Under the pieces are notes generated by a model, which made no database searches, was not told where the DNA came from, and saw only the letters and a program-made list of their open reading frames with translations. Source: Myxococcales bacterium (GTDB lineage Bacteria > Myxococcota_A > Polyangia > Polyangiales > DASUME01). Taken from it: DNA of 64,000 nucleotides. The stretch covers positions 7,456,001-7,520,000 of the forward strand of contig JASGJH010000001.1 in assembly GCA_047601445.1 (NCBI GenBank). The letters run 5' to 3'. The position numbers were made by a program, and so were the translations under genes. This document shows positions 38,877 through 45,585 of this stretch, one piece after another (the first letter of the stretch is position 1; the number at the start of each line of letters is the position of its first letter).

Positions 38877-41800
38877 ATGAGCGTGAAGAAGCGCACCGCG
38901 GCGCAGGCTGCGGCGGGTGGGGTGTCACTGAAGGGTGCGGCGTTTGGCTGGGCCCTGTTGCTTTCAGCGGCGAGCGGGTGCGGAGATGCGGAGCCCGCGA
39001 ACGACGCGACCTCGGCGCCCAACGTAGGCAGTGCGGTCCTGGCAGCCTCGGGTGCTGGAGAGGCCTGCGGGAACACGAAGGACGACGACCTCGACGGCCT
39101 CGTCGACTGTGTGGACCCGGATTGTGCCGCTGACGCGGCGTGCGGCCCCGCCATGGAGTGCCGCACCTTCTTCTGGCAAATCCAGAGCGCGACCTCGGCG
39201 ATCCGTCAGATCGTCACGACGCCCGCGAGCAACGCCTTCACGTCGAGCACCGTGGCCACCGTGGGGATCGGCACCAACGCGGCCGGCTACAACCCGCGGG
39301 ACGGCTACTACTACGCCATCGGCACGGGCGGCACCACTCAGCGACACCTGCTCAAGATCGACTCCACGGGCGCCTATACGGACCTTGGCGCGGTGGCGGT
39401 CCTCGTCACCGATGGTGTGAGCCCGATCGCAGGCGACTGCGACGATCGCGGCAACCTCTACGTGAAAGACAATGCGGGAAACGCGGTCTACAAGATCTCG
39501 CTTAGCTCCCCGTACACCACCACCAAGTACAGCCTGACCAGCGGCTTTGCCGGCGCCGACATCGTCTACGACCGCGACCTGCAGCGCTTCTACGGTGTGG
39601 ATGACGACACTCTCTACGCCTGGGACGCGGGCGCGGCTGCTCCGACGTCCAAGAGCATCACGGGCGCCACGGTCGACTCGGCCACCCACGCGGCGGTCTG
39701 GACCGATGGCGACGGCTTCGTTTACTCCCTGGAGAGCCAGGCGACCGGCGACCTGCGGCGCATCGATCCGTCCACTGGTGTCGCGTCCAAGCAGGGCACC
39801 TGGAGTGGCACCACGCCCACCGACGGTGCGGGCTGCAGCTACGTGCTCCCTCCGTTCGAGATCTGCGGCAATGGCAAGGATGACGACGGGGACGGCAACT
39901 CCGACGAGGCCGTCTGCATCACGCTGCGCGACACGGACGGCGATGGCGTGTTCAACGTGGTCGATCTCGACGATGACAATGACGGCATTCCGGACGTCCT
40001 GGAGCCCGGTGACAACGACGGCGACGGCGTGACGGATCGCCTCGACCTCGACAGCGACAACGATGGCATCGACGACATCGTCGAGGCGGGCCACGCCGGC
40101 GCCGACGCGAACGGGAACGGCATGCTCGACGGGGCACCGGCGGCCTTTGGCACCAACGGCCTGCTGGACAGCCTGGAGACAGCGCCCGACGCGGCCGTGC
40201 TCGCGTACACGATCCGCGACACGGATGGCGATGGCATCCGCGATGCGGCCGAGCTCGATAGCGATGGAGACGGTCTGTCGGACTTGAAGGAAGCCGGCTA
40301 TGCGGCTGCCACCTACGACGCCAACAACGACTCCAAGGCCGACGGCACGGACACGGATGCGGACGGTATCCGGTCCACGGTGGACGGTGCGCCAGCGGTC
40401 TACGGCGATGCTGGTGCGACCACGCTGCCAGACTCCGACTCCGACGGAAAGCCGGACTATCGCGACGTCGATTCGGACGGGGATGGCGTGTGTGACGGCG
40501 CGAGCGCCAACGCGGCGGCGAGCTGCGTCGCGGGGCCCGACTCGAACCCCACGTCGAACACGGTGTGCTCCGACACGGACGGCGACAGCTGCAACGACTG
40601 CTCGGCTGGTCACTACAACCCGAGCAACGACGGACCGGACAGCGACGGCGACGGCATGTGCAACGCCGGCGACGCTTGCGTCAACGACCCGGCCAAGAGC
40701 GCGGTGGGTGCCTGCGGCTGCGGCGTGCCCGATACGGACACGGACGGCGACACCGTGGCGGACTGCAAGGACAACTGCGTGAACGTGAAGAACGTCACGC
40801 AGGTCAACGTGGATGGTGACGCTTACGGAGCGGCCTGTGATTGCAACGACGTGAACGCCGCCGTGAATCCGGGCGCGACCGAGACTTGCAACGGCCTCGA
40901 CGACAACTGCAACGGCAGCACCGACGAGGGCGTGAAGAGCACCTTCTACAGGGATGCCGATAGCGACGGTTTCGGCTCCAGCACGACCACCCAGGCCTGC
41001 AGTGCGCCTGCCGGCTACGTGGCGAGCAACACCGACTGCGACGACACGCGCAGCAGCGTGCACCCGGGTGCGACCGAGGTCTGCAACGGGCTCGATGACA
41101 ACTGCGTCGGCGGCATCGACGAGGGCGTGAAGAGCACCTTCTACGCGGACGCCGATAGTGATGGCTATGGCGCTGCCAGCGCGGCGACCCTGGCCTGCAC
41201 GGCGCCAGCTGGCTACGTGGTGAACAAGACCGACTGCGACGATGTGCGCGCCAGCGTGCATCCGGGCGCAACCGAGGTCTGCAACGGTCTCGACGACAAC
41301 TGCAACGGCAGCACCGACGAGGGCGTGAAGAGCACCTTCTATGCAGACACGGACAGCGATGGCCTCGGCGACGCAGCCTCGACGCTGCAGGCCTGCAGTG
41401 CCCCTGCCGGCTACACCACCAGCCACGGGCCCGACAACTGCCCCGCGGTGGCCAACCCGCAGCAAGAGAACCTGGATGGGGACACCCTGGGCGACGCTTG
41501 CGATCCCGATGACGACAACGACGGGACCCCGGACGGCAGCGACAACTGCCCCCGTCTGGCCAACGACCAGACCAACACGGACGGGGACGCTCAGGGAGAC
41601 GCCTGCGACCCCGACGATGACAACGACGGCATCTGCGACACCGCAACCGCCGTGGCCAACGTGTGTACGAGCGGTCCGGACAGTGCGCCGACCAACTCGC
41701 ACCAGTGCGCCGACGCCGACCATGACAGCTGCGATGATTGCGCTCTCGGCAAGGCCAACACCAAGAACGACGGTGTGGACAGCGACGCGGATGGCATCTG

Positions 41801-44800: not shown

Positions 44801-45585
44801 TCCTGGATCCGGATGACCGTTGTCCGCTCGATCCCGAAGACAAGGACGACTTCGAAGATCAAGACGGTTGTCCGGACCTCGACGACGATCAGGACGGTGT
44901 GCTCGACACGAGCGACGCCTGTCGCCTCGATCCCGAAGACCGCGACGGCTTCGAAGACGAGAACGGCTGTCCCGACCCGGACAACGATCAGGACGGCTTC
45001 CTCGACGTGTCCGACCGCTGCCCGCTGGAGCCCGAGGACAAGGACGGCTTCGAAGATAGCGACGGCTGCCCCGAACCCGACAACGACAAGGACGGCGTGC
45101 TCGACGTGAACGACGCCTGTCCGCTCGAACCCGGCACGGTGGAGGAGAAGGGCTGCCCCAAGCAGGTCCGCCTCGATCTCGAGAGCGGTGAGCTCAGGAT
45201 CCTCAACCGCGTCGAGTTCGCCACCAACAAGGACGTGATCCTCTCGCAGAGCGAGCCGCTCCTGAGTGAAGTCCAGGCCACGCTCGCGGCCAACCCGCAG
45301 CTCACGAAGATCCGCGTGGAAGGCCATACGGACAACGTCGGCAGCGATTGTAAGAACCTCGACCTCTCCGAGCGCCGCGCCCGCAGCGTGGCCCGCTGGC
45401 TCGTCCAGCACGGCATCGAGGCCACCCGCCTCGAGTCGTGGGGCTGCGGCGAGACCCGCCCGCTCGGCACCAACGCTAGCAACGACGGTCGCCAGAAGAA
45501 CCGGCGCGTGGAGTTCCACCTCGGCGATCCCTCGCCCGAGGACGCGGAGGAGCTCAAGGGCTGCGTGCAGATTCCGGTGGAGTGA
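38877..45585 (+). CDS. Giant (~2,235 aa) surface protein: lipoprotein signal, propeller-like head, TSP3/MopE Ca-binding repeats, internal MYXO-CTERM-like tag, second signal peptide, beta-barrel, TSP3 repeats, OmpA domain; +1 frameshift at 42101-42102
   Basis: ORFs 38862..42254 and 41956..45585 join as DDDGIAD-LFEAG if one T is removed, matching the earlier repeats [10 protein letters not shown] and [10 protein letters not shown]. OmpA motifs [22 protein letters not shown]. Confidence 0.8.
40830..41420 (+). repeat. Three MopE-like Cys/Asp repeats (195-198 nt period)
   Basis: DCxD...V(H/N)[14 protein letters not shown]...DEGVKSTFY repeated; identical DNA gacgagggcgtgaagagcaccttcta at 40923, 41118 and 41316. 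Confidence 0.88.

Follow-up and report, generated by a model that had tools for sequence, protein, structure and literature searches.

The gene at positions 38877-45585 of the stretch analysed here (64,000 nucleotides, hereafter the window; Myxococcales bacterium, GenBank assembly GCA_047601445.1, contig JASGJH010000001.1; G000:C1:7456001-7520000 in our numbering) raises the question of whether one gene can encode two exported proteins, because a MYXO-CTERM-like tag lies inside its product and is followed by a second export signal. Our answer, drawn from sequence comparison and structure prediction, is that the product is probably a secretory polyprotein from which two cuts would release a predicted surface adhesin and its partner, a TraB-like barrel that would bind the wall. 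The junction between the two halves is a real and conserved fusion, and double processing of the putative precursor is well supported by comparison. Note that the gene is not a single open frame as assembled (see below). The host genome is a single contig (9.5 Mb, 66% GC). The parts of the gene, all on the + strand, are as follows.

38877..38981, +: start and N-terminal export signal with a lipobox-like ASG-C end (Cys35; from the sequence, putative lipoprotein type)
39192..39779, +: head of the DUF6923 repeat family (PF21959, E 3.4e-19)
39850..43713, +: Asp-rich stalk of TSP3-like and MopE-type repeats (three stretches of PF11617, and PF02412; 22-30% Asp)
42100..42105, +: one-base insertion, frame A to frame B (the homologue L031 is collinear, with 0 gaps over the break)
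43714..43824, +: internal MYXO-CTERM-like tag, L-Q-G-G-A-L-C (Cys at 43729-43731), linker, transmembrane helix (about 43762-43812) and RRRR (TIGR03901; Cys in 78/78 fused junctions)
43825..43932, +: basic spacer, then a predicted second signal of the Sec type (hydrophobic region from 43879, AHA at 43924-43932), like the signals at the N-termini of unfused barrels
43933..44745, +: predicted 12-stranded outer-membrane barrel, FapF/COG4313-like in fold and TraB-like in position (AlphaFold2, Foldseek)
44776..45159, +: TSP3-like Cys/Asp repeats, 8 Cys (sequence; the family profile matches 5wtl over positions 316-531, E 4e-74)
45217..45504, +: OmpA-like peptidoglycan-binding domain (PF00691, E 3.2e-18)
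45634..45663, +: 13-bp hairpin past the stop codon, terminator-like but weak (3 such sites found vs 3.1 expected)

The internal tag and the second signal

The tag was found as the initial annotation had read it, with QGGALC at 43714-43731, a transmembrane helix (the strongest hydrophobic 17-mer of the entire gene is at 43762) and RRRR at 43813-43824. It thus has the Cys motif, the helix and the Arg cluster of MYXO-CTERM; unlike in usual MYXO-CTERM proteins, it is not C-terminal, and 584 residues follow it. With the hidden Markov model TIGR03901 (cut-off 20 bits), the tag scored above the cut-off as fragments of 67-74 amino acids (21.4-21.7 bits) but not in the genome-wide scan (15.3 bits), and is thus borderline. 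The genome encodes the myxosortase MrtC (NF040594, 230.7 bits vs a cut-off of 195).

After the Arg cluster there is no stop codon, as previously noted; next come a basic spacer, long in this gene (22 residues), another hydrophobic stretch that starts at 43879, and AHA|QV, the Q being at 43933. The earlier observation that the interval from the Arg cluster to the second hydrophobic region (h-region) has no in-frame ATG extends to GTG and TTG; a single CTG occurs in the spacer, at 43849, without a motif like that of Shine and Dalgarno (SD). The second signal, judged by hydropathy and pattern, has a basic N-terminal region (n-region), an h-region and small residues at -3 and -1, and is on a par with the signals of unfused barrels.

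The beta-barrel-like region was predicted by AlphaFold2 (104-row alignment) as a barrel of 12 strands (predicted local distance difference test score, pLDDT, 97.1; predicted template modelling score, pTM, 0.92), in agreement with the initial annotation. Foldseek placed the predicted barrel with FapF (5o68; E 1.2e-10, template modelling (TM) score 0.67) and the COG4313 channel (4rl8; TM score 0.65), that is, with 12-stranded channels that are alike in predicted fold, whereas the identity is only 14-16% and the barrel of the window continues into TSP3-like repeats and OmpA. Among the 60 sequence matches to solved structures listed, none covered the barrel part; these cover the TSP3/OmpA part. 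The TSP3-like stretch, taken before as about five CP-containing repeats, has instead 8 Cys (7 in CP, 1 in CR), and the OmpA domain proposed there was recovered with PF00691.

Conservation of the fused junction

A query of junction plus barrel was matched in 58 of 61 related genomes, and a junction model in 171 of 301 genomes over the phylum (386 rows in all); because this model was built from fused forms, the phylum counts are not an estimate of frequency. Among the best 150 of the 386 rows, 74, by hand count, span the full junction with no stop codon in it and 6 with a single one. A total of 136 distinct barrels were classed as fused (78, in 64 genomes; the window is included, and 9 were reclassed by hand), split, with tag, stop and own start (10), or without a tag found upstream (48). 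The tag-spacer-signal junction is thus open in 77 loci besides the window; chance or a sequencing artefact was rejected as its origin on this ground. The initial annotation had held that a stop and an independent start in homologues would speak against it: such split forms do occur (10/136 barrels, two of them in this genome), beside many fused ones. The two split pairs of this genome (G000:C1:6154809-6158857 and 7679600-7682500) each consist of a tagged surface protein, a stop and a barrel gene that has a signal of its own. Since split tag-plus-barrel pairs exist, the halves work as separate proteins.

The tag Cys is invariant in the fused junctions (78/78). An h-region (9-residue hydropathy >=2) is found in 74/78 fused barrels vs 55/58 unfused ones, with a median of 2.7 in both, and A-x-A in 53/78 vs 41/58. 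The two groups differ in their start codons: an ATG in the interval from the Arg cluster to the h-region is present in 1/78 fused vs 42/58 unfused barrels, and an internal start is therefore unlikely. A start codon (ATG, GTG or TTG) with an SD motif was found in 2/78 fused vs 32/58 unfused barrels, the control windows giving 227/1560 (15% background). A Met within the tag was also considered as an internal start and rejected, as there is no enrichment (38/78 fused vs 13/29 C-terminal tags). That the barrel is translated from an internal start of its own, such as the CTG at 43849, with the absent stop a tolerated read-through, is in our view highly improbable. The 22-residue spacer of the window, the typical signal that a start at 43849 would yield, a close barrel relative that is split (L069) and the CTG or ATH codons in the spacers of 17/78 junctions speak for it; against these stand the absence of an SD motif before 43849, an SD motif with a rare start in only 1/78, the count with ATG, GTG or TTG, which is under the background, and the spacers of <=8 residues in 30/78 fused junctions.

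The heads of the fused family are unrelated (LamG, Big_13 (Ig), FG-GAP, DUF642 and AgmC_N). In a quick tree of 132 barrels (4 short rows dropped), the label "fused" needs 15 changes, at least 7 of which are forced by well-supported branches, and in a carefully built tree of 23 rows around the window (rows picked after the first tree was seen) a single fused clade was rejected (approximately unbiased test, p-AU 2.5e-5); fused and split forms interleave on the barrel tree. At L113 (G099:C41), L339 (G464:C1) and L129 (G201:C132), fused genes occur in tandem or a related barrel standing alone comes after the fused gene. A search with AgmC_N matched 22/401 genomes, and no fused junction and no ftsZ motif was found in any of 15 regions taken from it; it did not lead to MXAN_5598. 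A single-protein search for related loci gave mostly repeat matches.

Ahead of the tag Cys, a motif, hydrophobic-x-G-G-x(0-4)-Cys (43705-43731 in the window), is present in 66/78 fused and 7/10 split tags. The model that picked up most of the fused loci itself includes this motif, so that the contrast within the genome is the fairer test: 4 of the 29 C-terminal tags have it, of which 2 are barrel-linked, the other tags having it in 2/27. In other loci, a relaxed motif was found in 7/8 tags upstream of a barrel, 0/3 downstream of a barrel and 4/15 others. We hypothesize, and no more, that the motif might dock the tag to the barrel; a predicted complex of the barrel with a 31-residue tag peptide (0.24 and 0.19 vs a mark of 0.32) is counted neither as support for binding nor as evidence against it. 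The motif is also borne by AgmC-type proteins that have no barrel next to them (for example, G000:C1:4839290), and these may use an unlinked barrel.

A second internal tag occurs in the same genome (G000:C1:8166190-8169318; L330:4191-7319, +), in a 1,042-residue protein with Asp-rich repeats, a MYXO-CTERM-like tag, RRRR, a signal with a lipobox-like QAC and one more domain, in this order. From its order of parts, this protein is a predicted tag-plus-lipoprotein version of the same arrangement. The junction is also found in G005:C535 (L355), and other relatives have open frames of about the second half's length only; because Met codons lie in the second signal of the 1,042-residue protein, an internal start is possible there.

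The frame break and the putative processing

The initial annotation took 38877-45585 as a single open reading frame (ORF) and overlooked a switch of frame near 42102. As assembled, frame A stops at 42254 and frame B, open from 41905, ends with the stop codon at 45583-45585; the signal in the GC content at third codon positions (GC3) moves from one frame to the other near 42100 and stays high on either side. A homologue from the same genus (L031, 2,552 residues) is collinear over the break with 61% identity, and because it aligns there without a gap, we regard 38877-45585 as one gene with a one-base insertion near 42102, which resembles a doubled T. In comparison with a genome of the same genus, the frame is changed in 6/155 orthologous ORFs here and in 4/104 in the reverse comparison; 1 of 3 frame-changed ORFs inspected is a clean single-base insertion. 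At G000:C1:7899715, a conserved gene likewise has a clean insertion of a single A when compared with G007, a change much like the break.

It is rather unlikely, in our estimation, that the insertion is a real mutation, by which the protein would be truncated at 42254 before the tag and the barrel and the gene would be inactive in this strain. The break is present in the assembly, and the rates of 6/155 and 4/104 do not separate error from mutation; the lesion is single, though, with high GC3 on both flanks, and its doubled T has a counterpart in the clean doubling of an A elsewhere in the assembly, in a conserved gene. Were the mutation real, the junction here would be a silent relic of a design live elsewhere, which is compatible with the polyprotein reading for the family.

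In the polyprotein as we conceive it, the N-terminal signal would route head and stalk through Sec, the tag helix would act as a stop-transfer sequence, and the Arg cluster and the spacer would stay in the cytoplasm. The Arg cluster would double as the n-region of the second signal, which would restart export; signal peptidase I would cut at AHA|Q, and the free barrel-TSP3-OmpA part (550 residues) could then be inserted in the outer membrane and bind the wall. The tag Cys would be lipidated, MrtC would cut after it, and the adhesin (about 1,600 residues) would be brought to the surface by the type II system, the route published for TraA, whose tag is cleaved by MrtX (sorting steps as in passages of PMC11980579). 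A stub of two helices would remain in the inner membrane. Adhesin and barrel would arise in a 1:1 ratio, with the barrel likely tethering the adhesin to the wall, for adhesion and not for membrane exchange of the TraAB type. Precursors split at an internal signal by signal peptidase are represented by the Bradyrhizobium fbcH cytochrome b-c1 precursor and by viral polyproteins; to our knowledge, these have no second cut of the sortase type, and it would, as far as we know, be unusual for a bacterial precursor to yield two exported proteins through the action of two different membrane proteases.

We regard as unlikely a single cut, in which signal peptidase I would free the barrel and the internal tag would be a poor substrate for the myxosortase, the adhesin staying on an inner-membrane hairpin or being extracted uncut. 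The borderline score of the tag, the hairpin shape, which is unlike a free C-terminal tag, and some surface localisation without MrtX (reported in passages of PMC11980579) are in its favour, but the Cys is retained in 78/78 junctions with a conserved Gly motif ahead of it, and the split relatives bear the same tag at a true C-terminus. As to the earlier proposal, the comparison supports a single gene for adhesin and partner, a conserved tag and second signal and the improbability of an internal start, and a myxosortase (MrtC) is encoded in the genome; the two cuts and the 1:1 release are putative, and the frame is broken near 42102.

Several points weigh against the polyprotein with two cuts. 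The tag of the window is below the cut-off of TIGR03901 in the genome scan, and only 53/78 tags match this model at E 0.01. The pattern of the cleavage site is permissive, matching 78/78 fused vs 56/58 unfused barrels, and the second h-region of the window is among the weaker of the set (hydropathy 2.0). The 78 loci were chosen for open frames using models from fused forms, and 9 of them were classed by hand. The function as an adhesin is predicted from the domain type. Finally, if the break near 42102 is real, neither product would be made from the upstream start in this strain.

As for the N-terminal half, the signal of L031 ends in a similar lipobox-like GAAC, and a lipobox-like N-terminal Cys is common to the gene of the window, L031 and a few other fused proteins. 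Because the signal here ends in such a Cys, the adhesin could carry a lipid at each end. The DUF6923 head, which we take to have a propeller-like fold, has DUF6923/DUF4394 as its neighbours in the Atlas, with a low recognition score, and is shared by none of the fused homologues compared. The stalk, with its Asp-rich repeats, is likely to bind Ca2+. The gene is unaccompanied, with a divergent Band_7 (flotillin-like) gene on one side and a chemotaxis cluster on the other; the latter lies directly downstream on the same strand (46015-53853) and is ordinary, with CheY, a GAF protein, CheA, a multi-PAS methyl-accepting chemotaxis protein, CheB and CheR. No promoter was found in a promoter scan. 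Long open frames lie antisense over the gene (40804-45960 and 38964-42446, both -; 1,718 and 1,160 residues) and are probably shadow frames of a coding strand that is repetitive and GC-rich.

TraAB, MXAN_5598 and the wider family

TraA and TraB are a MYXO-CTERM surface protein followed by a signal-barrel-TSP3-OmpA protein, as in the gene analysed here, and form a 1:1 complex according to passages of PMC3325183, PMC6372800 and PMC12045341 (the ratio TraA:TraB of 1:1 is from the last). In contrast, they are two overlapping genes and not one frame, and the PA14-like variable domain and TIGR04201 repeats of TraA are absent here. With the TraB model NF033763 (cut-off 700 bits), the gene scored 200.1 bits and nothing genome-wide exceeded the cut-off; TIGR04201 (TraA Cys repeats) had no match in the gene. 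Membership in TraA or TraB was rejected on these two results and the lack of a PA14-like variable domain, and the initial annotation's TraAB-like system for kin recognition or membrane exchange was not borne out. The barrel gene of the second split pair is the best match of the genome to the TraB model (170.6/700 bits), its partner being not TraA-like by inspection. A fused, functional TraAB, that is, a kin-recognition receptor driving outer-membrane exchange, is very unlikely: the order of parts matches TraA plus TraB (PMC6372800, in part), the GG-A-x-C ahead of the helix resembles that of TraA (as read visually off a primer sequence in the supplement) and this genome has no TraB above the cut-off, but the 200 bits lie mostly in TSP3/OmpA, the TIGR04201 repeats are absent, and the head is DUF6923, not PA14-like, with heads differing by whole domains over the family.

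The layout itself is not new. Passages of PMC11980579 (2025) note it once, for MXAN_5598 of M. xanthus (large adhesin region, internal MYXO-CTERM, outer-membrane barrel and OmpA in one ORF, beside ftsA/ftsZ), liken this protein to TraA plus TraB, propose that its N-terminal part is processed and term both the layout and internal tags rare; the second signal is unmentioned in the Discussion passages on MXAN_5598, and the passage of the barrel through the inner membrane behind a stop-transfer helix is left open there. MXAN_5598 is also listed in the outer-membrane-vesicle proteome excerpted from PMC4158809. The gene of the window shares the adhesin-tag-barrel-OmpA layout, apart from the frame break, but is not an orthologue, having flotillin-like and chemotaxis neighbours instead of ftsA/ftsZ, a DUF6923 head and an Asp-rich stalk; it is a new, non-orthologous member of the published layout. 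Among 20 regions from the family of a Myxococcaceae record, 7 fused genes lie directly before ftsZ, all with a second h-region and a signal-type site, and their tag-Arg-h-region-AxA junction is as in the window (the tally of the Myxococcaceae-family search was 40/41, and the unpublished genome G482 enters that tally only). Because these seven relatives carry it, MXAN_5598 very likely has the second signal as well, by analogy. Among the papers listed on MYXO-CTERM and on MXAN_5598, neither a second signal nor the polyprotein idea was found, no paper came up for TraB together with FapF, and "internal", "TraB" and "OmpA" do not occur in passages of bioRxiv 2023.06.07.544157. SgmI (MXAN_2561) and the barrel MXAN_2562 are likewise a tagged adhesin co-transcribed with a downstream outer-membrane barrel, and their mutants share fitness profiles, but these are separate genes with fibronectin III domains, and OmpA is unmentioned in the passages (bioRxiv 10.64898/2026.08.28.747804).

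The present analysis adds the hydrophobic-x-GG motif marking barrel-linked tags, the predicted FapF-like fold of the barrel and the tag-plus-lipoprotein fusion in the same genome. The gain for this locus alone is modest, as it is one further member with a frame break. For the family, the conserved second signal accounts for the passage of the barrel through the inner membrane, and the breadth of the family suggests a general adhesin-plus-barrel module to which TraAB would belong as one instance. The motif of the barrel-linked tags offers a well-defined site at which to alter the TraA-TraB contact by mutation. It is possible, though doubtful, that doubly processed polyproteins of this kind are common in myxobacteria and have evolved repeatedly, the tag and the second signal being a cut-twice cassette that releases a variable head and a partner 1:1, the partner being a barrel of FapF type anchored to the wall, or a lipoprotein in the case of one family, and the hydrophobic-x-GG strand ahead of the tag Cys being an address that lets the barrel take up its lipidated client. 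If this is true, the address would also explain how TraA engages TraB.

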